The notes beneath the pieces were generated by a model. The model saw only the letters and a list, made by a program, of their open reading frames with translations. It was not told where the DNA came from and ran no database searches. DNA of 62,833 nt, filler included, from Thermoplasmatota archaeon (GTDB lineage: Archaea > Thermoplasmatota > E2 > JACPAO01 > JAHFTW01), in assembly GCA_041623215.1 (NCBI GenBank). It is 17 parts of 17 records of this genome, joined end to end, with 100 filler letters (N's around TTAATTAATTAA, not from the genome) between each part and the next. Parts side by side here need not be neighbours in the genome. Positions count along the whole stretch, not along the records: positions 59,650 to 62,833 come from JBFJXH010000179.1; 16 more parts are not named here. One strand, written 5' to 3'. The position numbers and the translations under genes are program-made. This document shows positions 7,419-62,833 of the stretch, piece after piece. Every line of letters starts with the position of its first letter. Within the stretch, counting starts at the first letter, position 1.

Positions 7419-7462
7419 TCCGGGCCACAACCGCCATACGCCTTGCCTGACTCGTAGGCTTG

Positions 7463-8014
7463 ATGTCTCAGGGTACATCCAGCCATTCCACCGCGACCAC
7501 CGAGGCGTGTCAGGACCGCTTTGCCTCGCATGGCATCTGCTACGGATGCGGCCCCGCCAATGACCAAGGCCTTCGAATCAAGAGCTATTGGGAGCAGGAT
7601 GAAGACAATACGGAGGGTCCCCACGCGGGCCGCGCGTTCATTTGTCGCTTCACACCTGAGGCTCACCACCAGGCCTTCCCTGGTGTCATCAACGGCGGCA
7701 TCATTGGCACCTTGCTGGACTGCCACAGCAATTGGTGCGCGGCCATGACGCTCATGGAGCATCACGGATGGGGCGAAGCGATGTGTACGGTCACGGCGGA
7801 CTTTCACGTCAAGCTGCGTGCGCCAACGCCTGCCGGTGAAGAACTCACCGTCAAGGCATGGGCCGAGTCCCCGTCCGGCGACGGCGAGCGCCTTTGCAAG
7901 GTGCGCGCTGAAATCTGGGCCGATACCCCCCGCGGCCGCAAGATTACCGCCACCTGCACGGGCACATTTGTGGCCGTCGAGGAAGGTCACCCCGCGTGGC
8001 ACCGGTGGGGTTGA
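7463..8014 (+). CDS. PaaI/hotdog-fold acyl-CoA thioesterase
   Basis: CYGCG, HQAFPGVINGGIIGTLLDCH and VTADFHVKLRAPTP are typical of 4HBT/PaaI-like thioesterases. Confidence 0.85.
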   Translation: MSQGTSSHSTATTEACQDRFASHGICYGCGPANDQGLRIKSYWEQDEDNTEGPHAGRAFICRFTPEAHHQAFPGVINGGIIGTLLDCHSNWCAAMTLMEHHGWGEAMCTVTADFHVKLRAPTPAGEELTVKAWAESPSGDGERLCKVRAEIWADTPRGRKITATCTGTFVAVEEGHPAWHRWG

Positions 8015-22502: not shown

Positions 22503-23489
22503 ATGAACCTCGAATCCGTGATGCGTCCGTATTTGGACCAGTTCAACGCCGAACTCGAGAAGTATCTGTTTCTGCGAAAGCCGGAGCCGCTCTACGAGGC
22601 TATTCGCCACTTGCCCTTCGAGGGCGGGGGTAAGCGCCTGCGCCCCATCGCGGCCATTTTAGCGGCCCAAGCGGTTGGCGGCGACTCCAAGAAGATCATG
22701 CCTTACGGCGTTGCTTTGGAGGTGCTGCACAACTTCACCCTGATTCACGATGACATCATGGATGAGTGCGACACGCGGCGCGGCGTGGATGCGGTCCACA
22801 GCAAATTTGGCTCCAACCTGGGCATGCTCGCTGGCGACACGATGTTCGCCATTGTCTTCGAATTGATGGGCCACCTCGAGATTGAGGACGCCATGTTCCG
22901 TTCGGTCAACCTTGACCTGGCGCGCCTGGCGCGCGAGGTCTGTGAAGGCCAATACTGGGACATGCACTTTGAGACGGTCAAGAAGATTGACGAGATGGAC
23001 TACTACCACATGATTGAGCGCAAGACCGCCACGTTCTTCGAAATCGCCATGAAGAATGGCGCGGAGCTGGGCGGCGGCGACCACAACCAGGTCAAGAAAT
23101 TAGCCGAGTGCGGGCGTTTGCTGGGCTTGGCCTTCCAAGTCTGGGACGATGTTCTTGGTGTCACCGGGACGGACGAGGAAACCGGCAAGCCAACGTTTAG
23201 TGACATCGTCAACGACAAGAAGACGCTCGTCTATGTGGCTACCCATAAGGCGCTGGACCCGCTCGACCGACGCACCCTCGTGGACCTCTACAAGAAGGAG
23301 GACAAATCGGCTGAGGACATCCAGACGATTCTGAAGTTCATGGAGAAGTCCGGCGGCCTCGATTTCGCGAAGAAGCGCGCCAAGGAATTCAGCAGCTTTG
23401 CCAAGGCGACGCTAACCGAGTTGCCGGACACGGCGGCTAAGCGTATTCTGGGCATGGTGGCTGAATTCGCGAGCAACCGGACGTCCTAA
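22503..23489 (+). CDS. idsA: Short-chain polyprenyl (geranylgeranyl) diphosphate synthase, archaeal type
   Basis: GGKRLRP, HNFTLIHDDIMD..RRG (bulky Phe upstream of the first Asp-rich motif), GQYWDM, KTA, AFQVWDDVLG, GKP..SDI. Confidence 0.9.
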   Translation: MNLESVMRPYLDQFNAELEKYLFLRKPEPLYEAIRHLPFEGGGKRLRPIAAILAAQAVGGDSKKIMPYGVALEVLHNFTLIHDDIMDECDTRRGVDAVHSKFGSNLGMLAGDTMFAIVFELMGHLEIEDAMFRSVNLDLARLAREVCEGQYWDMHFETVKKIDEMDYYHMIERKTATFFEIAMKNGAELGGGDHNQVKKLAECGRLLGLAFQVWDDVLGVTGTDEETGKPTFSDIVNDKKTLVYVATHKALDPLDRRTLVDLYKKEDKSAEDIQTILKFMEKSGGLDFAKKRAKEFSSFAKATLTELPDTAAKRILGMVAEFASNRTS

Positions 23490-52982: not shown

Positions 52983-55900
52983 GGTGTATGGACCGCCACC
53001 GCTGAACACTGGTTTGACGATGGCAGCGGGTTCGCCCTCAACGATGGCCCGGTTAGCGTGACCTTTACCGTCGGCGATGGGCCCGATACCGAAGCCCCGT
53101 CCCAAGCCACCGGCTTAGAGGCGACGGCTACCGGACCGGACGCCATTGACCTGACCTGGAACGCCGCCACCGACAACGTCGGCGTCGACCACTACAATGT
53201 CTACCGCAGCGCTACCGCCGGATTCACGGCCGGCCCGGCTAACCTCGTTGCCACACCTACTGGCACCAGCTACACCGACAGTGGTCTAGCCGCGCAAACG
53301 ACGTATTACTACCAAGTCACGGCCGAAGACGCTGCCGGCAACGAAGGCACGGCGAGCGCCGAAGCGAGCGCAACCACCGAATCGCAACCGGTTTCCCAGG
53401 AAACGGTGAAACTGTACCTCGACGGCGCCAGCACGCCGTTTGCCACCCTATCCATCACTACGGGCGGCGTTGGAACCGCGTCGTGGACGACGCCGTTTGA
53501 CACCACGACCGTCACGGATGGCTTCCACGACATCACGGCCGTCTATGATGATGGCAATGGAGGCAGTGCGCAAGACTCGGTTCGCTTCTACACAGCCAAC
53601 AACGCCGCGATTAGCATTGATTCGCCAACCGACGGTAGCGACGTTCTCCAAGACTTCGAGGCCAGTGGCACAGTCAGCTTGCCAGCTAGCCAGCAAGGCG
53701 TGCGTCTTGTGAACCTGGATGGCACCACGAATAGCGACCACTTCGGCTTGACTGCCCGGGACCACCCGGCCTACCAAGCCATTGAATCGTCCTTGGCCCA
53801 AGAATCCGGCTTCGTGCTTCTAACCCCGGTTCTAGATGGCCGCAAGATTCTCGTGGCCTTCTTCGAAGGCGACGTGCCGAACCAACTGCCACTAGAATTG
53901 CTGCCCGAAGGCTGGCAACTCTTGGCTGCCGGCGACCTGAAGCTCGAACAAACGCGTCTGGAGGTTCCCGAAGACCAAGTGATCTTCATGGACGAGCCGG
54001 CACCCCGTGCACCCGAGCCGACGGTCACTCATGATGGCATTGGCCCGGGCAGCACCTTGCTAATCTACTATGGTGGTGGCGTGGGCGTCTGCACGGCCAA
54101 CTACATTTGGGAAAATACCGCAACCAAGGAGCTGTACATTGGCGCTGCTGGTCACTGCTTCATGCCTCAGGACCGCGAGTCCACGCATGGCTCCGGTGCG
54201 GACTGGAATCCCTCATCCGTAACCGAGATCTGGGTGTGCAAGGGCAACTGCCTGGGTGGCGGAGGCGGCCTTGGCAGCGGCTTTGTGGGCATCCACAACG
54301 TCGCCGGCCAGATGGTGACCCTTGGTTCTAACAGCCTTGTTTACGCACGGCAATCAACTGGCACGGCGGAGGTCGGCCACGACTTCGGCATCGCCAAGAT
54401 TCCTGACGCGCTTCGCGACATCGTTCGCCCTGAAATGAAGGTGTGGAAAGGCCCCACCGGTGCAGCGAACACCAACAACGGCGACTTCTTGGCCCAATAC
54501 GGCAACTCCATTGTCTTTGGTGAAACACCTGCGACGCAAGCACGCGCCGGCTTCGGCTACGCCACCGGCGGCGGTGCCTGGCGCGGCGTCTTGCCCAGTG
54601 CCCAAGGGGACTCAGGCAGCGCCGTGAACGGGCTACTGCTCGGCGGCGAGGATCTGGCCGCGGGAACGACCGCGCGCGGTGTCCTCACGCACTTGTCCCC
54701 GGCGGGCTTTAGCTTCCCCACCATTCCCGCCGGCATCACGGCCGGTACCACGGTGGACCGCGCCATCCAAATGGCCCAGAACGACGCCGGCATCAGTCTG
54801 CGCCTCGTTCTCGAAGGCGAAGACGTCACCTCCGTTGGCCCGACGCCACCAGCTGCCCCGCAGACCCTGTCGGCGACGCCCGGCAGCGGCCAGGTAAGCC
54901 TGACGTGGGGTGCCCCAATCAGCGATGGCGGTGCAACCATCACGGATTACACGGTGAAGTGGGGCACGTCGAGTGGCTCCTACTCCGACAGCACGAGTGC
55001 GGGTACTGACATGGCAGAGACCATTACGGGCCTTACCAACGGCGTCACGTACTACTTCAGCGTCAGCGCAACCAACAGCGAGGGCGAAGGTGCCAACAGC
55101 GCAGAAGTGGCAAGCACGCCACAAACTGCGCCCACGGCGCCCGATGCCCCCGGCAACGTCCAGGCCGCTGGCGCCGATGCGAGCATCTTGGTCAGCTGGG
55201 ACGCGCCTAGCAATGGTGGTAGCCCCATCACGGGCTACACGGTCCACTACGGCACCACCACGCAAACCTACACGGCCACCAAGAGCGTCGGCCCCGGCAC
55301 GACCAGCACGACCCTCACGGGCCTCACCAACGGCCAAACGTATTTCCTGGCCGTTGACGCAACCAACAGCGTCGGCACCAGTGCCTTGTCCTCCGAAGTG
55401 ACCGCCACGCCGGTCGCTGGCCCGCCCACCGACTACAGCGTCCAAGTGCGCGCAACCAACGCCGGCGGCACGGTCCAAGACTGGACCGACGCAACCCTGG
55501 CCGGCAGCATGTGGACGTACGACTTCACCGGCATGCCGCTTGGTGACCTCAACGTCGAAGCTCGCCTGAGCCAAAACACACAGACGGTTGACACGGACAG
55601 TGTGACCGTCACGGTGGTGCAAGCCAACCAACCCCCGACTGCCAACGCCGGTGCCGACCAATCGGTCGAAGCTGGCACCACCGCGTTCCTTAACGCCGGC
55701 GCTAGCATCGATCCTGACGGCGACATCCTCTCGTATCAGTGGACGCAACTCTCGGGCACGCCCGTTGCCTTGGCTGATGACGACACCGTCCAGGCCTCCT
55801 TCGAAGTGCCCCGTGATGCGGGTACCATGCTCTTCCAGGTGACCGCGACGGACCCGCACGGCGAGTCGGACCCCGACACCGTCAGCGTCACGTCGTTCAA

Positions 55901-56260
55901 TGCGGACGAACTGACCTTTACGTCCATCAATGGAGAAGCGTACAACCCGGTGAACGAGCCATACGGGGTCTACGAAGGCATCATCCCGGTTGGAGGCGCA
56001 GCCAGTCTCAGTGGCGGCGTCAGCGAGCAGGAACCCAACAATGCCCCCACGGCGGACATCTGCAACGTAACCATCACTGGCCTTCAGTTCAGTGCGGACA
56101 GTTGCAGCTTCGACCCCGATGCGGGCGACACCCTGACCCTCAACTGGGCCTTCGGGGATGGCAGCGTGGCAACGGGATCCAGCGTCGCCTACACGTACAG
56201 CGGAGCGGGTACCTACACGGTCACCTTGATGGTCTTCGACAATCACGGTGGAAGCTCGCA
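52983..56260 (+). CDS. Very large multidomain secreted protein: FN3, Ig-like, internal chymotrypsin-like (S1) protease, two FN3 and two PKD domains (truncated at both ends)
   Basis: Frame open across the whole contig; W.AATDNVGV..Y.VYR FN3; AAGHC, DFG and GDSGS triad; NQPPTANAGADQ and WAFGDG..Y..AGTYTVTL PKD motifs. Confidence 0.85.
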
Positions 56261-56360: not shown

Positions 56361-56882
56361 GTCATCATCAGTGGGCCCTGCGACGCCACCATCCGATTCA
56401 CCAACGACGCCATTGAGGAAAGCGACGGCGGCCGTCCATTGCCTGAACCTGTAGAGGCAACGGACGCGTTTGACCTGCGCCTGGAAGCAGGATGGAAAAC
56501 TGCCATCATCGACGTAGTGTTCAACCCCGACGCTCACCCTGGCCTGGATGGCCTTCGCCTGAGCGCTAATGGCCGCGATGCGCAAGCCAACGTCTGGGTG
56601 TACGAACGGTACCGCACCGTGCACGGCGCCGACCCCTTTACCCTGCGCATTGACGCGGGCGCCGAGTACGAAACCGGCTTTGTCGCCGTACCCATCAATG
56701 CCACCGATATGCAATTGAACGTGTACCCGCACAGTCATGGCTACAAGCAAGTCTGCGACCCAGGCATCTACGACGGGAGTTGCTTCCTCGGCCTAGGAGC
56801 AGGTGCCCAAGTAGAGTTCGAGCTTCTCGTTACCGTGTTCTACATTGAGCCGGCACCGGATGGCTGGACCAGCCTGCAATGA
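56361..56882 (+). CDS. Hypothetical protein (5' truncated)
   Basis: Open frame; ATGA overlap with the MMPL gene. Confidence 0.6.
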   Translation, partial: VIISGPCDATIRFTNDAIEESDGGRPLPEPVEATDAFDLRLEAGWKTAIIDVVFNPDAHPGLDGLRLSANGRDAQANVWVYERYRTVHGADPFTLRIDAGAEYETGFVAVPINATDMQLNVYPHSHGYKQVCDPGIYDGSCFLGLGAGAQVEFELLVTVFYIEPAPDGWTSLQ

Positions 56883-59326
56883 TTGCTTGGACGCGCCGGC
56901 AGGCACTGTCCATCCTAGCCGTTGGCTTGGCGGCCACGACCGGCATGGCCTTGGCATCTACCAGTCTCGAAACGGAGGTAGACTTCGTCGATGCCGTGCC
57001 AGACCACGACGGCCTAGCATCCTACCGGGCCCTGCTAAGCGAATTAGACGGCGTCCATTTCCTTGCCATCTACCATGCGCATGACACAACCAGTGGGACA
57101 GATCACCTCCGTGGCGAAGCGTTCGATGCATTAGTCATGGAGCAAGCGCGGCTCGGGGCAGACCTACGGGCTGCTTTTCCGGGCATGTTCAGCCACGAAC
57201 TGAACGTTGCAGAAGCCATGCGGGCGGGGAACTATATGCTGGAAAAAATGGCAACCGGCGGCCAGGCGCGTCCTGAATCCTATGCGCTTCCATCGGACCC
57301 GGTGCGCTACCAAGCCGTGCGCGACCAAGCGCTTGCGGGCGACAGCCTCGACGCAGTCCTCGCACCCGATGGCTCAAGCGCACTCAGTCTTTGGTTTGTC
57401 ACAGCACGCGATTCCGCCGCCGCACGCGTCTTGGCCCTAGACGTAAACAATTGGCTCGCCGACTGGGCGGCAACGTCCGCGAATCACCCCACCACAACGC
57501 AGCACGCGTTGACGGGGCTCCTATGGGCGCGTGCTTACACCGACCAAGTCAACCGCGAAGAAACCACACACTGGGGCATCCTGGCCGGCGCTGCGGTCGC
57601 ACTTTCTCTTCTTTGGGTCCTGCGACGACCCAGCAACGTCCTCCTAGCCGTGGTGACGCTGGCCGTGGCGCTCGTTTGGACCTACGGCACCATGGCACTC
57701 CTGGGCATTCGCATTAGCTTCCTGACGGCGTTTCTGGCGCCGGTCGTGATTGGCATTGGCATCGACTATGCCGTGCACCTTCTCCACCGGTTCGACGAAC
57801 AACTGGCCCGCGGGGATTCGGTGGACGGCGCCTTGATGGCCGCCCTAGCAGGGAGCGGGCCGGCCGTTGCGCTTGCAGCCTTGACCACGGCCGCTGGGTT
57901 AGCAGTCCTGCTGCTGGTTCCAGCACCCCTCTTTGCTGAGATTGGAGGCGTCGCGGCCATCGGCATCCTCATGGCCGCCCTGGCGACCTTCACCATCACG
58001 CCCGCGCTGCGACGCTTGCTGCCGGCACGTCGGTCGCGACGACACCCAGCCAGGCGGGCCAAGCTCAGTTGGTGGATGCGATTTGGGGACCTACCCCCAC
58101 GCGCCACCATCCTCATTCTCGTCGCCATTACGGCCGTCGCGGGCACGGCAGCGGCAACGGGCACCGAAGTGGCATCGGGCAGTGCCCAAAACGAGTTCCC
58201 ACAGGACGACCCAACCATCGAATTGCAGCAACGAATTGAGTCGGAGTACGGGGCGTTTGCCCGCGCCTACCTGGTCGTGGAAGGGCCCATGGACCGCGCC
58301 CAGGCGCTCCAGGCAATCCACGATGCAACGTTGGCAAGCCACGAAGCTCCGTTGTGGCGTGACGCCACCAGCGTCGCCGATGTGGTTCTCGCAGACCGCG
58401 CCACCGACCAGGGCGCTGTTGACGTCGGCCTTTCCACCTTGTTGACGCCGGCAGGGCAGCCCTCTCCGGCCGCCGGTCTGCCCGCAACCGACGAAGAGGC
58501 GCGGGCCTCCCTCGATGCTCTCTTCGCGGATCCCTTGTGGCGCACCATCGCGCCCTTCACCATCAGCCGCGACTACCAGCTCGCCGTGGTCGCCGTCACG
58601 CTAGACCCATGGCAAACACAAGGCGAACTGCAAGCCGTGGCCCGCGAGCTCCGGGCGCAAGCCGCCACGTTGCAGGGCACGCTCGGCGACGACTACCATG
58701 TAGCCGCCGCGGGCGGGCCTCTGAATCGACACGCCATCGTCGAGCAGACCCCCAGCGATGTGGCGCTAGCAACCATCGGCACGACTGCGGTGGTATTTGT
58801 GTGTCTGGCCACGGCATGGCGGCGTCGCCCGCGCGGCGTCCTCATTGCAGCAGCGGCCGCAGGAACAGTCCTCGTCGCGGCCCTCTGGTTACTTGCCACC
58901 ATTCCGGTGCTAGACGCCTGGTACGCCTGGGGCCACGGTGCCCTGGGATGGCCCGCCAACAGCGCCACGCTCAACGACATGTTCCTGCTGGCGTTTGCCA
59001 TCACGGTAGCCGCTGGCATCGACGACTGGGTCCATTTTGCCCACCGGACCTGGAGCACGGGAAGTACCCAGGAAACGCTCCGGACCACGGGCCGGGCGCT
59101 GACCGGAACCACGCTGACGACCACGGCGGCCTTTGCCACAATGGCCGGCATCTACTTCCTGCAATCCAAGAATCTGGCCATCCTCACAGCCGTCGGTGTT
59201 GCTTCGGCTTACCTCCTAACCATGGCCGTTGCGCCAGTTCTGATGCGGGGGGCCGTGGCCACGCACGCTGACGGGCGAGGCCCCTCCCCAACCACGCCGC
59301 CTCGCACCACCACCTCCGGCGACTAG
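56879..59326 (+). CDS. MMPL/RND-family (HAE3-like) lipid/hydrophobe transporter
   Basis: Two repeats of 1 TM + extracellular domain + 5 [32 protein letters not shown]. Confidence 0.85.
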
Positions 59327-59549: not shown

Positions 59550-59650
59550 NNNNNNNNNNNNNNNNNNNNNNNNNNNNNNNNNNNNNNNNNNNNTTAATTA
59601 ATTAANNNNNNNNNNNNNNNNNNNNNNNNNNNNNNNNNNNNNNNNNNNNC

Positions 59651-62600
59651 ATGGAGGCGGATTTGGGGATTGATACGGTGAAGCAGGCGGAGTTGTTTGG
59701 TTTGATTCGCGAGGCGTATGAGGTGCCGCTTCAGGATGGCTTGCAAATCAAGGACTACCCGACGCTTCGCGCCGTCGCCGATTACATTGCATCGCAAGCG
59801 GAGGTAGGCTCCTCGCCAAGCGCCACCGCTGAGGTGCCAGTGGCCACCAGCGTCCCAAATCCCGCGCAAGCATCTGCCCCTGCCGTGGCCAGCGGCCCGT
59901 CCAATGTCGCAGCCGCTTCACCATCAGGTGATGGGGATATTTTGGCAACCGTCACGGCGCTGGTCGCTGACCAAACTGGCTACCCGGTCGAATTGCTGGA
60001 GCCGGACTTAGACATGGAGGCGGACTTAGGCATTGATACCGTCAAGCAGGCGGAACTGTTTGGGCAAGTGCGCGAGGCATTCGGGATTGCGCCCATAGAC
60101 GGCCTTCAACTGAAAGATTACCCGACGCTTCGAGCGGTGGCTGGCTTTGCCGCGCAACACCGGGCTGGCGGAGAAACCACAGCCCCGCTACAGGACGCGG
60201 AGGCACCTCGCACGCGCGCCGCTACGACGCCGGCATCCGACATTGTTCGCCGCATACCAGTTTGCCGGCCCGCCGCGACGCCCAACAGGGACAATGCCAT
60301 TTCCCCCGGTGTGATTTTGGCCGTCGGTGACTTTGACCGAGATTTCTTTGATGCCTGGAGCGAGGCTGGCTTTTCGGTGACGCAGCGTATTCGTGAAGGC
60401 GACGTGCTGGCGGGCATCATTTGCTTGGCGACGCGACCTGACGCGTCGTCGGCGTCGTCGCGAGCTGGCGCGCTCTTCGACGCCGCCAAGGCCCATCAGG
60501 ACAAGTTGGGCAAGGGGACGTTTGTGGCCATTGTCACCAGGCAGGACGGGGCACATGGTGTGTCGCCGGACGCGGCCATCCGCGACCCTGCAGCAGGGGC
60601 CGTGGCAGGGCTTGGCAAGGCCTTGGCGAAGGAACTGCCCGACGCAGTGGTCAAGGTTGTGGACCTTCATCCTGGCACGCCCGGAGCAGCCCAACTCGTC
60701 ATGAACGAAATTCTTCAAGGCGGAACCCGCACGGAGGTAGCTTTCGGCCAGGATGGCGACCGATTCGCCATCGATGTCATCGAGGAAGCAATTGCCCAAG
60801 CGGTCCCCGACGTGGCGGGCAAGAACCTCGTGGTTTCCGGTGGGGCTCAAGGCATTACCGTGGAATTGCTGCGCTCGCTGGCGCCGCAGCAGCCGCGCTT
60901 GCTGCTGCTGGGCCGGACGCCGCAACCGAACGAAGCAGCGACTTGGGCCACGTGGCAAGAGTCGGACTGGGCCGCCGAGCAAGAGCGTGTCATCGATTCA
61001 CTCAAGCAGGCGGGTGAACGCCCGACGCCGGTTGCCATCAACAAAGCTGTTGATGCCAAGCGCAAGGCGGCCGAGGTGTATCGCAACCTGAACGACTTGC
61101 AACGGGCCGGTGCACAGGTCTTGTACGCCCCGGTGGATGTCACGGACCCCGGCGCCGTTGCAGAGGCCGTTTCGTGGGCGCGTCAAGAATTTGGCCCCAT
61201 TGACGGCGTCCTGCATGCGGCCGGCGTGGAAATTAGCAAGGATTTGGCAAACAAGCCCCGTGACCAATTTGACATGGTTTTCGGCGTCAAGCATGCAGGC
61301 TGGCAGGCGTTGATGGCGGCAACGGCGGAGGACCCAATTACAGTCGTGGCCGCCTTCACGTCGGTAGCCGGACGATTTGGCAACTTAGGGCAAACCGATT
61401 ACGCGGCGGCCAATGAATTCCTTGCCAAGGCCGTCAAGGCCGAAGCCGCGCGGCGAACGTCGCAGGGCAGCCCCTGCGCCGGATTTACCATCGCGTGGGG
61501 GCCCTGGGGCGAAACCGGTATGGCGACCAAAGGCAGCATTCTCACCATCATGCGAGAGTCAGGCGTAACTCCCATTCCCACCGCCCATGGGGTCCGACAT
61601 TTCCTGGCCGAATGGGCCGCCGCCACGACCGCGCCGGGGCAAGTCTCGGAGGCCGTGGTTGCCGGTATGCTTGGCGACATCGACGCGGATGGGCAAATCG
61701 TGGCGCCGATGTCCGACGAGGCCACCCTGCCCGGCAAGGCCACGGACCAGGTGGCAGAGCTAGAGGCTAGGGTAGCCGCTGCGCCTGCGCGTTTCCGCTT
61801 GCTAGACCGTATTGTCGAGGCGGACATAGGCAAACGCATCGTGGCGGAGGTCGTAATCGACGCGGCCCGCGACCCCTACCTACGGGACCACAGTATTGAC
61901 GGTGTCCCGGTCTTCCCCGGCGTTTTTGGCGTGGAAGCGTTTGCCGAGGCGGCCACATTTTTGGCCGAGCGCGACACGCACGTGATTGGTGCTCGCGACG
62001 TCCGGTTCGTATCGCCCCTGAAACAACTCAAGGAAGCGCCCGTGGTAGCAAGGCTGGAGGCAACAGCGGTCCGCGCTGAAACGGACGCGGGGATGGATGT
62101 CGCTTGCCGTCTGACGACCCAGTTCATCGGGCCGGATGGAAAGCCGCACGGCGAGCCTCGATTGCACTTTGAAGCAACACTCGTGCTGGGTGAACCGTCG
62201 CCGCCAGACTTTGGCAAGGTCCCCGTCACGACGCGTGACCGCGATGCGTCCATGGTGTACGACCGCTTCTTCCATGGCCCATCCTTCCAAGTGATTGGCT
62301 TTGCCGGGCCCATTGAAGGGCACTCGGTCGGCCGCTTCCGGCGACCGGAGGAAGCTCACTTCGGTGCTGGTGAGGCGCTTTTCCTAACTCATCCAATGAT
62401 TCACGAGGCGTTGTTCCAGTTGGCGGGGCTTCACGCCATGGAACATGGCGGTGTCATGGCACTGCCAGCGGCCATTGGGCACTTGGAAATCCTTGAGCAG
62501 GAACGCCCCGAAGGTGAGGTGCGCCTGTCGGCGACCAGCCTTGGCAAGGATAGCGGCGGCTTGTGGCGTTATGACTTGGTGGCCATCAGTACCGATGGTC

Positions 62601-62833
62601 GCGTCATCACCCGCATGAAGGACTTCGCCTTGGTTGAAGCAGGCCCGGCGCCGATGCCCGGCGCCAAGCAGGATGGCTCTTTGGCCGCTTCGCCGGCCCT
62701 TGAAGGCACGGTGGCTGACCCCGACGCCGGCGAAGACGTGGATGTTCGCCTCACGGAGATTGGCGCGGCAGCACCGATTCCCGCGGGCGGCATTGCCTTG
62801 CCTGAAATTGACGGGGTGGTGCTAGCTGCGTGC
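59651..62833 (+). CDS. PUFA-synthase (PfaA)-like type I polyketide/fatty-acid synthase fragment: ACP-ACP-KR-DH, open at both ends (not in ORF track)
   Basis: 1061 codons with no stop. Two ACP units with MEADLGIDTVKQAELFG (the second preceded by TGYPVELLEPDLD) and an Ala/Pro/Ser linker. KR: VSGGAQGIT, HAAGVE, FTSVAGRFGNLGQTDYAAAN, WGPW. DH: DHSIDGVPVFPG, FHGPSFQ, HEALFQ. Confidence 0.92.
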   Translation, partial: MEADLGIDTVKQAELFGLIREAYEVPLQDGLQIKDYPTLRAVADYIASQAEVGSSPSATAEVPVATSVPNPAQASAPAVASGPSNVAAASPSGDGDILATVTALVADQTGYPVELLEPDLDMEADLGIDTVKQAELFGQVREAFGIAPIDGLQLKDYPTLRAVAGFAAQHRAGGETTAPLQDAEAPRTRAATTPASDIVRRIPVCRPAATPNRDNAISPGVILAVGDFDRDFFDAWSEAGFSVTQRIREGDVLAGIICLATRPDASSASSRAGALFDAAKAHQDKLGKGTFVAIVTRQDGAHGVSPDAAIRDPAAGAVAGLGKALAKELPDAVVKVVDLHPGTPGAAQLVMNEILQGGTRTEVAFGQDGDRFAIDVIEEAIAQAVPDVAGKNLVVSGGAQGITVELLRSLAPQQPRLLLLGRTPQPNEAATWATWQESDWAAEQERVIDSLKQAGERPTPVAINKAVDAKRKAAEVYRNLNDLQRAGAQVLYAPVDVTDPGAVAEAVSWARQEFGPIDGVLHAAGVEISKDLANKPRDQFDMVFGVKHAGWQALMAATAEDPITVVAAFTSVAGRFGNLGQTDYAAANEFLAKAVKAEAARRTSQGSPCAGFTIAWGPWGETGMATKGSILTIMRESGVTPIPTAHGVRHFLAEWAAATTAPGQVSEAVVAGMLGDIDADGQIVAPMSDEATLPGKATDQVAELEARVAAAPARFRLLDRIVEADIGKRIVAEVVIDAARDPYLRDHSIDGVPVFPGVFGVEAFAEAATFLAERDTHVIGARDVRFVSPLKQLKEAPVVARLEATAVRAETDAGMDVACRLTTQFIGPDGKPHGEPRLHFEATLVLGEPSPPDFGKVPVTTRDRDASMVYDRFFHGPSFQVIGFAGPIEGHSVGRFRRPEEAHFGAGEALFLTHPMIHEALFQLAGLHAMEHGGVMALPAAIGHLEILEQERPEGEVRLSATSLGKDSGGLWRYDLVAISTDGRVITRMKDFALVEAGPAPMPGAKQDGSLAASPALEGTVADPDAGEDVDVRLTEIGAAAPIPAGGIALPEIDGVVLAAC

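Follow-up and report, generated by a model that had tools for sequence, protein, structure and literature searches.

A predicted acyl carrier protein-dependent megasynthase and a candidate FabI partner across an order of Thermoplasmatota archaea

We analyzed a 62,833-nucleotide stretch of DNA (the window) from a Thermoplasmatota archaeon (GenBank assembly GCA_041623215.1, here genome G000; GTDB lineage Archaea; Thermoplasmatota; E2; JACPAO01; JAHFTW01), in which 17 small contigs of this one genome are concatenated with spacers and whose last piece encodes part of a type I megasynthase predicted to build acyl chains. This piece is the entire contig C179 (JBFJXH010000179.1; 3184 nt; window positions 59650 to 62833), occupied edge to edge by a single plus-strand frame (59651 to 62833; 1061 aa, zero stops); since the frame fills the contig, the ATG at 59651 represents an internal Met within an acyl carrier protein (ACP) domain and not a start. 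A previous inspection of the DNA by itself (the sequence-only reading) had described an uninterrupted frame running to the window end with ACP, ketoreductase (KR), and dehydratase (DH) domains. The frame is indeed stop-free, profile searches recovered all three domains (Pfam PP-binding, E = 6.6e-12; KR, 2.8e-30; PS-DH, 4.4e-14; PKS_DH_N, 4.2e-8), and the motif codons it had picked out (GGT at 60839, TAC at 61400, CAC at 61889, and GAG at 62405) are all in frame. It had also guessed at a C-terminal phosphopantetheinyl transferase (PPTase) and suggested that contig extension would reach the missing ketosynthase-acyltransferase (KS-AT) part; the former was found as an ACPS match (8.6e-12) on contig C37 and the latter on contig C58. 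Beyond that reading, we observed a FabF-like KS between the AT and the ACPs, a Thr at both ACP attachment positions, and a FabI encoded elsewhere in the window.

The first 141 nt of C179 are identical to the end of the reversed C58, and at its other end C179 overlaps the reverse of C37 by 186 nt (98.4%, 3 mismatches). The upstream continuation on C58 encodes KS1-AT-KS2-ACP and the downstream continuation on C37 the PPTase followed by a stop; joining the three contigs by script gave a protein of 2851 aa with the architecture KS1-AT-KS2-ACP-ACP-pseudoKR-KR-DH-PPTase. The left join falls inside an ACP repeat whose depth is about twice that of the remainder in two runs of one study, which possibly contain the source sample and do not count as independent support (14.6 versus 6.9 to 8.5 and 12 versus 5 to 9), and to which alternative flanks attach in both runs; therefore, at least one ACP copy of this gene has probably been collapsed. 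Among the contig pieces listed for the two runs, none extends across the whole C58-C179-C37 stretch. Uninterrupted relatives of 2762 to 3798 aa carry three to four ACPs, and the order KS1-AT-KS2-ACP×3-4-KR is seen in 13 full-length relatives (that of G024 likewise). On this reconstruction, the complete synthase is a predicted protein of roughly 3,000 residues with the arrangement KS1-AT-KS2-ACP×3-4-KR-DH-PPTase, of which C179 encodes the middle third (Table 1). The gene is flanked by a carboxyltransferase upstream and by BioY, biotin carboxylase, BCCP, and enoyl-CoA hydratase genes downstream; the carboxyltransferase lies upstream in all 14 of the order's loci that were fetched, and biotin carboxylase lies downstream in 11 of them.

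Table 1. Features of the predicted synthase and its candidate partner, by window position
Feature	Position	Strand	Evidence
Megasynthase gene, middle third (all of C179)	59651..62833	+	Overlaps with C58 and C37
ACP, 3' part, collapsed repeat (probable); attachment Thr codon 59675	59651..59790	+	About twofold depth, alternative flanks
ACP, complete, serine-free; Thr codon 60038 at phosphopantetheine position	59924..60151	+	PF00550; gap-free alignment to solved ACPs
Pseudo-KR structural subdomain (approximate limits)	60240..60815	+	Alignment with 13 homologues
Catalytic KR; Rossmann motif 60839, Tyr 61400	60830..61510	+	PF08659, residues 394-620; PksJ/AmphB KR matches
Double-hotdog DH; His 61889/Glu 62405 dyad	61799..62635	+	Pfam; homologue conservation
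Linker and beginning of fused Sfp-type PPTase, finishing on C37	62636..62833	+	Contig join
Stand-alone FabI enoyl reductase (contig C163)	10822..11754	+	1.6e-61 to Thermus FabI

The motifs of KS1 and AT are intact, and the AT carries a Phe that we take to be malonyl-selecting. Among structures, those of FabF come closest to KS2 (2e-26), and the Cys/His/His residues align; KS2 is thus no dead chain-length factor. Of 55 homologues, all have the His of the DH dyad and 54 have the Glu; the dyad is presumably of the FabZ type, i.e., non-isomerising. In the PPTase, the P1a motif was present in six of the seven sequences compared and P1b' (hShxH) in five, with Thr replacing Ser in P1b' of G000, and no P0 was seen. 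The synthase protein has neither an enoyl reductase (ER) nor a thioesterase domain, nor a FabA-type DH pair. We considered a hidden ER between the ACPs and the KR and rejected it, as this gap is a pseudo-KR.

The sequence-only reading had left it conditional whether the gene is native to the archaeon, and had proposed comparing its composition with that of the bin and looking for homologues in related archaea on contigs with archaeal markers. The genome, which encodes TBP, has a completeness of 88.4% and a contamination of 0.04%. The GC content of C179 is 0.633 against 0.627 for the bin, and 46% of 488 bin fragments of the same size lie further than C179 from the bin's tetranucleotide profile, making it typical of the bin in composition. 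A KS2 query matched 35 of the order's 38 genomes, among them G000, and none of the 159 other genomes of the class; a KS1 match added G030, placing the synthase in 36 of 38. The two genomes without a match are G002 (85% complete) and G156 (66% complete, KS2 query only). In relatives, the synthase shares a contig with rpoH (G005:C3), with TFB (G023:C5), and with oapABC about 3.7 kb downstream (G003:C1), and dN/dS values for three pairs are 0.11, 0.15, and 0.24. The closest titled records are Thermoplasmatota metagenome-assembled genomes (MAGs). A tree of 28 proteins gives SH-aLRT 100 both to family f1 (8 rows) and to family f3 (2 rows), 89 to a grouping of the order with Heimdallarchaeota and one spirochaete, and only 19 to the order as a single clade; a 68-row tree agrees (SH for order monophyly, 0.277). 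Because monophyly of the order's synthases is unsupported, we claim no donor and no order of events. None of the three outcomes named in advance as telling against a native gene (coverage or composition foreign to the bin, uniformly bacterial flanking genes, absence of homologues in related archaea) appeared. Judged by these genomic comparisons, the predicted synthase is native to the order and order-wide.

A distinctive feature of the family concerns the residue to which the phosphopantetheine arm would be attached. Once four non-ACP pattern matches had been removed, Thr was found at this position in all 60 ACPs of the order, in 4 of 4 from Heimdallarchaeota, and in 175 of 178 from bacteria; in a set of 120 family proteins the count is 330 Thr to 1 Ser. 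In gap-free alignments, the Thr falls on the phosphopantetheine-bearing Ser of ACPs with solved structures, and across 84 ACP domains there is no other column with a conserved Ser. Canonical ACPs have this Ser where helix II begins; those of the order do not. Thr and Ser are the only residues seen at the position, which suggests that the hydroxyl is used. We therefore consider it likely from the alignments that phosphopantetheine is loaded on the Thr of these predicted carrier domains, each synthase having a PPTase of its own. The main text of the paper describing the related Type R synthases (PMC3098273; see below) does not mention Thr-type ACPs. The only Ser-type ACPs seen lie between AT and KS2 in a Myxococcota-like clade (L060:4049-4276, L084:8906-9133, and L095:8945-9172), in which the corresponding ACP of other loci (L061, L076, and L104) is of the Thr type.

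The FabI surfaced in a scan of short-chain dehydrogenases/reductases (SDRs). It is present in 37 of the 38 genomes of the order versus 0 of the 159 others of the class. The Tyr...Tyr-x6-Lys motif was present in all 14 sequences inspected, the fold is that of SDRs with FabI proteins as best matches, and the NCBIfam FabI models are the five top matches, every one below its cut-off. In one genome (G001) the fabI ATG overlaps the TGA of the synthase gene (ATGA). A search for FabZ in five genomes of the order found no match besides the synthase's own DH; thus, FabI has no evident fatty-acid synthase of type II (FAS II) to serve. Its co-distribution with the synthase points to full reduction to saturated chains, and we predict that it is the trans-acting partner of the synthase. 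Two other reductases were tried and rejected: a Heimdallarchaeota FabK query for FabK/PfaD matched 0 of the 38 genomes, and the acyl-CoA dehydrogenase (ACAD) linked to bacterial synthases (see below) has no orthologue at E<=1e-75 in the 197 genomes of the class, its paralogues in G000 being only 28 to 35% identical. NMO matches were weak and partial in 11 of the 38 genomes, with none in G000. MDR-family proteins are also present.

The family extends well beyond the order, with about 1200 stored GTDB stretches and 4136 of 8000 scored candidates; databases name its archaeal members "SDR family oxidoreductase," which perhaps accounts for their being overlooked. Two Heimdallarchaeota-titled records (L090:3992-14722 and L101; 86% identical over 1758 aa) encode a version whose N terminus carries two FabK-like barrels, a catalytic-looking His motif being present in the second; the gene is located downstream of a carboxyltransferase and close to ThiI and an RpoM-like zinc ribbon. 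From its domain content, this Asgard version would be a FAS-like protein of type I that is self-contained. The order, Heimdallarchaeota, and the Myxococcota-like clade all have a fused PPTase, and in 23 bacterial loci it is a separate gene. In 24 bacterial loci, an ACAD-family gene of about 545 aa lies immediately upstream of the synthase (e.g., L068:4675-6300), with electron transfer flavoprotein (ETF) genes further upstream in 7 of these; this ACAD is a candidate flavin enoyl reductase that would run in reverse. Thus, the family appears to occur with three candidate reductases, namely FabI in the order, FabK as a fused domain in Heimdallarchaeota, and, in many bacteria, ACAD/ETF. No FabZ match was found in any of 15 Chloroflexota-titled carriers, and the gene complement suggests that in Anaerolineae the synthase replaces FAS II and behaves as the primary FAS. 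The first ~340 aa of L042 (G026) and the corresponding part of 22 Myxococcota-like loci form a conserved extension at the N terminus that looks like a degenerate barrel of the FabK type, with a weak match to the first Heimdallarchaeota barrel; it is probably a relic of a fused reductase. A GNAT-family gene stands directly downstream of the synthase in L054 (14805-15452) and 12 other loci of the Myxococcota-like clade.

Genes for acylation of glycerol-3-phosphate (G3P) and for archaeal ether lipids occur together in the order. GpsA is found in 37 of 38 genomes versus 8 of 159 others of the class. A PF01553 (PlsC-family) search over the 38 genomes and 4 control archaea recovered one to five acyltransferases in every genome of the order and none in the controls, and a PlsB/GPAT-like protein is present in 27 of 38 versus 0 of 159. 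The third acyltransferase has a weak DAGAT match (1.7e-4), its top structure match being PlsC, and it may or may not act in triacylglycerol formation; WS/DGAT was recovered in 0 of 5 genomes, the control genomes being equally without a match. G1PDH-family proteins and GGGPS are each encoded by 33 of the 38 genomes; in G000 both score above cut-off and have DGGGPS- and GGR-like genes beside them. An archaeal-type isoprenyl diphosphate synthase in the window (22503-23489, plus strand; IdsA/GGPP synthase best matches) fits the retained ether-lipid pathway. Elsewhere in the window, an unlinked gene (7460-8014, plus strand) has a weak match to 4HBT hot-dog thioesterases (3.5e-4) and is a possible release enzyme.

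The reading that we judge most probable, with reasonable though by no means full confidence, is that the iterative ACP-based synthase and FabI make saturated acyl chains, which are likely supplied to G3P acyltransferases. In this scheme, the flanking carboxylase would make malonyl-CoA, the cis PPTase would load phosphopantetheine onto the Thr of the ACPs, and the AT would load malonyl. KS1 and KS2 might share out priming or short-chain and long-chain elongation, and the KR, the His/Glu DH, and FabI would finish each cycle without cis double bonds. As there is no thioesterase domain, the chains would pass to CoA or straight to PlsB/PlsC-family enzymes, giving acyl-G3P lipids beside glycerol-1-phosphate (G1P) ether lipids. 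CarS is reported in the available text of PMC9385802 to be selective against bacterial phosphatidic acid; hence, instead of a CDP-derived phospholipid, any acyl lipid here may be a neutral lipid or glycolipid.

Several observations weigh against this proposal. Regarding the synthase and its partner, fabI adjoins the synthase gene in only 1 of 14 loci of the order, G002 has FabI without a synthase match, co-occurrence within the order amounts to one evolutionary event and not 38, and ACPs usually use Ser for attachment (as given in the available text of PMC7949117). On the lipid side, genus g5 lacks the PlsB-like protein in 9 of its 13 genomes (of these 9, five are >=90% complete), PlsY is absent from all 5 genomes searched, and the CTP-transferase matches are weak (best, 1.7e-9), leaving no clear CdsA. 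Neither of the two Heimdallarchaeota carriers has PF01553, and so the synthase is not invariably paired with acyltransferases. Beta-oxidation-type genes (ECH, ACAD) lie near the synthase in the order, such that the acyltransferases could use scavenged fatty acids, and with the ether-lipid pathway intact, the acyl lipids need not be structural.

These lipid-side gaps lend themselves to an alternative that we regard as unlikely while taking it seriously: the protein is a genuine FAS whose chains go to uses other than G3P esters (protein acylation, lipoate or biotin precursors, wax, or long-chain alkyl glycolipids), with acyltransferases that were independently acquired and work on scavenged fatty acids. 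Besides the lack of a clear CdsA or PlsY, the patchy PlsB-like protein, the Heimdallarchaeota carriers, and the widespread GGGPS and G1PDH-family genes, it can draw on gene neighborhoods, since the fabI, gpsA, and acyltransferase genes are scattered and those around them include no recurrent lipid genes. It sits less well with the near-universal GpsA (rare outside the order) and PF01553 enzymes. Moreover, three to four tandem ACPs, a number associated with high throughput in the available text of PMC3098273, would exceed the needs of cofactor supply.

A second alternative, in which the synthase works without an ER to yield a polyene or a partly reduced polyketide and FabI belongs to another pathway, takes its model from the enediyne polyketide synthases (PKSEs), which have a single KS-AT-ACP-KR-DH-PPTase protein accompanied by a thioesterase and cassette genes. 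The shared ACP-KR-DH-PPTase order, the lack of an ER domain, and the mostly unlinked fabI speak for it. However, the synthase differs from PKSEs in its two KSs, three to four ACPs, carboxylase operon, and co-distributed FabI, and the flanks of 13 loci contained no recurrent thioesterase or tailoring gene. FabI tracks the synthase across the class, overlaps its gene in G001, and lacks a FAS II in the five genomes searched for FabZ, while the FabK-fused Heimdallarchaeota homologue shows the family working with a reductase. We consider this alternative improbable, and the enediyne flavor of the sequence-only reading was not upheld, given the extra catalytic-looking KS and the FabI co-distribution.

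More improbable still is a PfaA-like synthase of polyunsaturated fatty acids (PUFAs). The top NCBIfam family is PfaA (TIGR02813; 251.7 bits), and the protein shares with it KS-MAT, tandem ACPs, and a KR. Nevertheless, the score is far from the cut-off of 1010, an extra KS stands between AT and ACPs, the PPTase is in cis and lacks the PUFA-type P0 motif, the DH has a His/Glu dyad, and no PfaB, PfaC, or PfaD partners were found. A PfaC-type KS-CLF-DH2 is absent in G000, whose only strong KS matches are the two of this gene. Accordingly, while the sequence-only reading was right about a type I ACP-dependent megasynthase with a cis PPTase, its PUFA/PfaA flavor did not survive the lack of PfaD/FabK and of a FabA-type DH pair and the presence of the extra catalytic-looking KS. 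Finally, bacterial contamination of the bin, for which one might cite the lack of an archaeal marker on C179 and close bacterial homologues (57 to 65% KS2 identity), has a negligible probability and is in our view already refuted by the matching GC and tetranucleotide composition, the 36 carriers among 38 related archaea, the fully supported f1 and f3 groupings, and the contigs shared with rpoH, TFB, and oapABC.

Among known systems, the synthase is, by its domain composition, a variant of the uncharacterized bacterial Type R secondary lipid synthases, described in the available text of Shulse & Allen 2011 (PMC3098273) from Roseiflexus, Koribacter, Solibacter, and Elusimicrobium with an uncharacterized product. 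As given there, both share KS-MAT-second KS-like domain-ACP(3-6)-KR, a nearby acetyl-CoA carboxylase (ACC) gene, and a PPTase with P1a x(G/D)xP and P1b' hShxH and no P0. Proteins named for Roseiflexus sp. match KS2 at 58%, and the tree includes Terriglobia and Chloroflexia loci in place of the exemplar strains' own proteins. The third domain of the order's synthase is FabF-like and keeps Cys/His/His, whereas the Type R account calls it a non-catalytic chain-length factor (CLF); since bacterial homologues likewise keep Cys/His/His, this may be a difference in naming. In further contrast to the Type R description, which has a separate downstream PPTase gene, the order's PPTase is fused, the system is archaeal and order-wide, the DH follows the KR, and the candidate trans reductase is FabI as against the upstream ACAD of many bacterial carriers.

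De novo fatty-acid synthesis in an archaeon has also been described for an ACP-independent complex of Sulfolobus (bioRxiv 10.1101/2024.07.05.601840), which is CoA based and thiolase driven, unlike the order's synthase. A PUFA-like polyketide synthase cluster in one Heimdallarchaeota MAG with 9.8% contamination was interpreted as secondary metabolism (PMC7472256); its KS domains are nearest to the PUFA type, and it possibly belongs to the same family as L090/L101, with no architecture, reductase, or lipid link given in the available text. In the accessible part of PMC10304266, T1PKS figures among the classes counted for genomes of marine archaea, with no further detail, and the corresponding parts of PMC8041624, PMC3910706, PMC9287336, and PMC13635244 contain nothing bearing on the synthase. 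We found no published description of the order-wide system in the literature covered, from which subscription journals were mostly absent, as were supplements. Three additions matter: the predicted FabI partner, the Thr-type ACPs, and the occurrence of genes for G3P acylation in genomes whose ether-lipid genes are intact.

One of the grounds for the "lipid divide" is that archaea lack ACP-based fatty-acid synthesis and PlsB. The order described here apparently retains a complete ACP-dependent set, and it has genes for G3P acylation and for ether lipids as well, which makes natural mixed membranes directly testable in it. We advance only tentatively, and with more doubt than belief, the far-reaching version in which de novo fatty-acid synthesis on a single-chain Thr-phosphopantetheine synthase takes place throughout the order, the products being esterified to G3P while G1P ethers are kept, i.e., a natural mixed-membrane archaeon. 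The bacterial distribution offers a likely function for the uncharacterized Type R synthases, as primary FAS in Anaerolineae, and the invariant Thr of the order suggests carrier-protein modification on an unusual residue.

The remaining features concern neighboring genes and other contigs of the window. Upstream of the carboxyltransferase on G000:C58 (L009:6872-10769) lie genes for a membrane protein, a UbiA prenyltransferase, an ALO-type FAD oxidase, and an SMR/EamA protein, which presumably resemble a polyprenyl-phosphosugar (DprE1-like) cluster. In five relatives (L036-L040), a suf cluster (sufS, sufU, and FeS_assembly_P) is found upstream of the carboxyltransferase. A plus-strand gene at 56879-59326 encodes an MMPL/RND-family membrane protein with a sterol-sensing-like domain; because it is on contig C178, its nearness to the synthase is an artefact of concatenation. 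A large surface protein is encoded at 53058-56260 (plus strand), with fibronectin III and PKD repeats flanking a region that by eye is protease-like.

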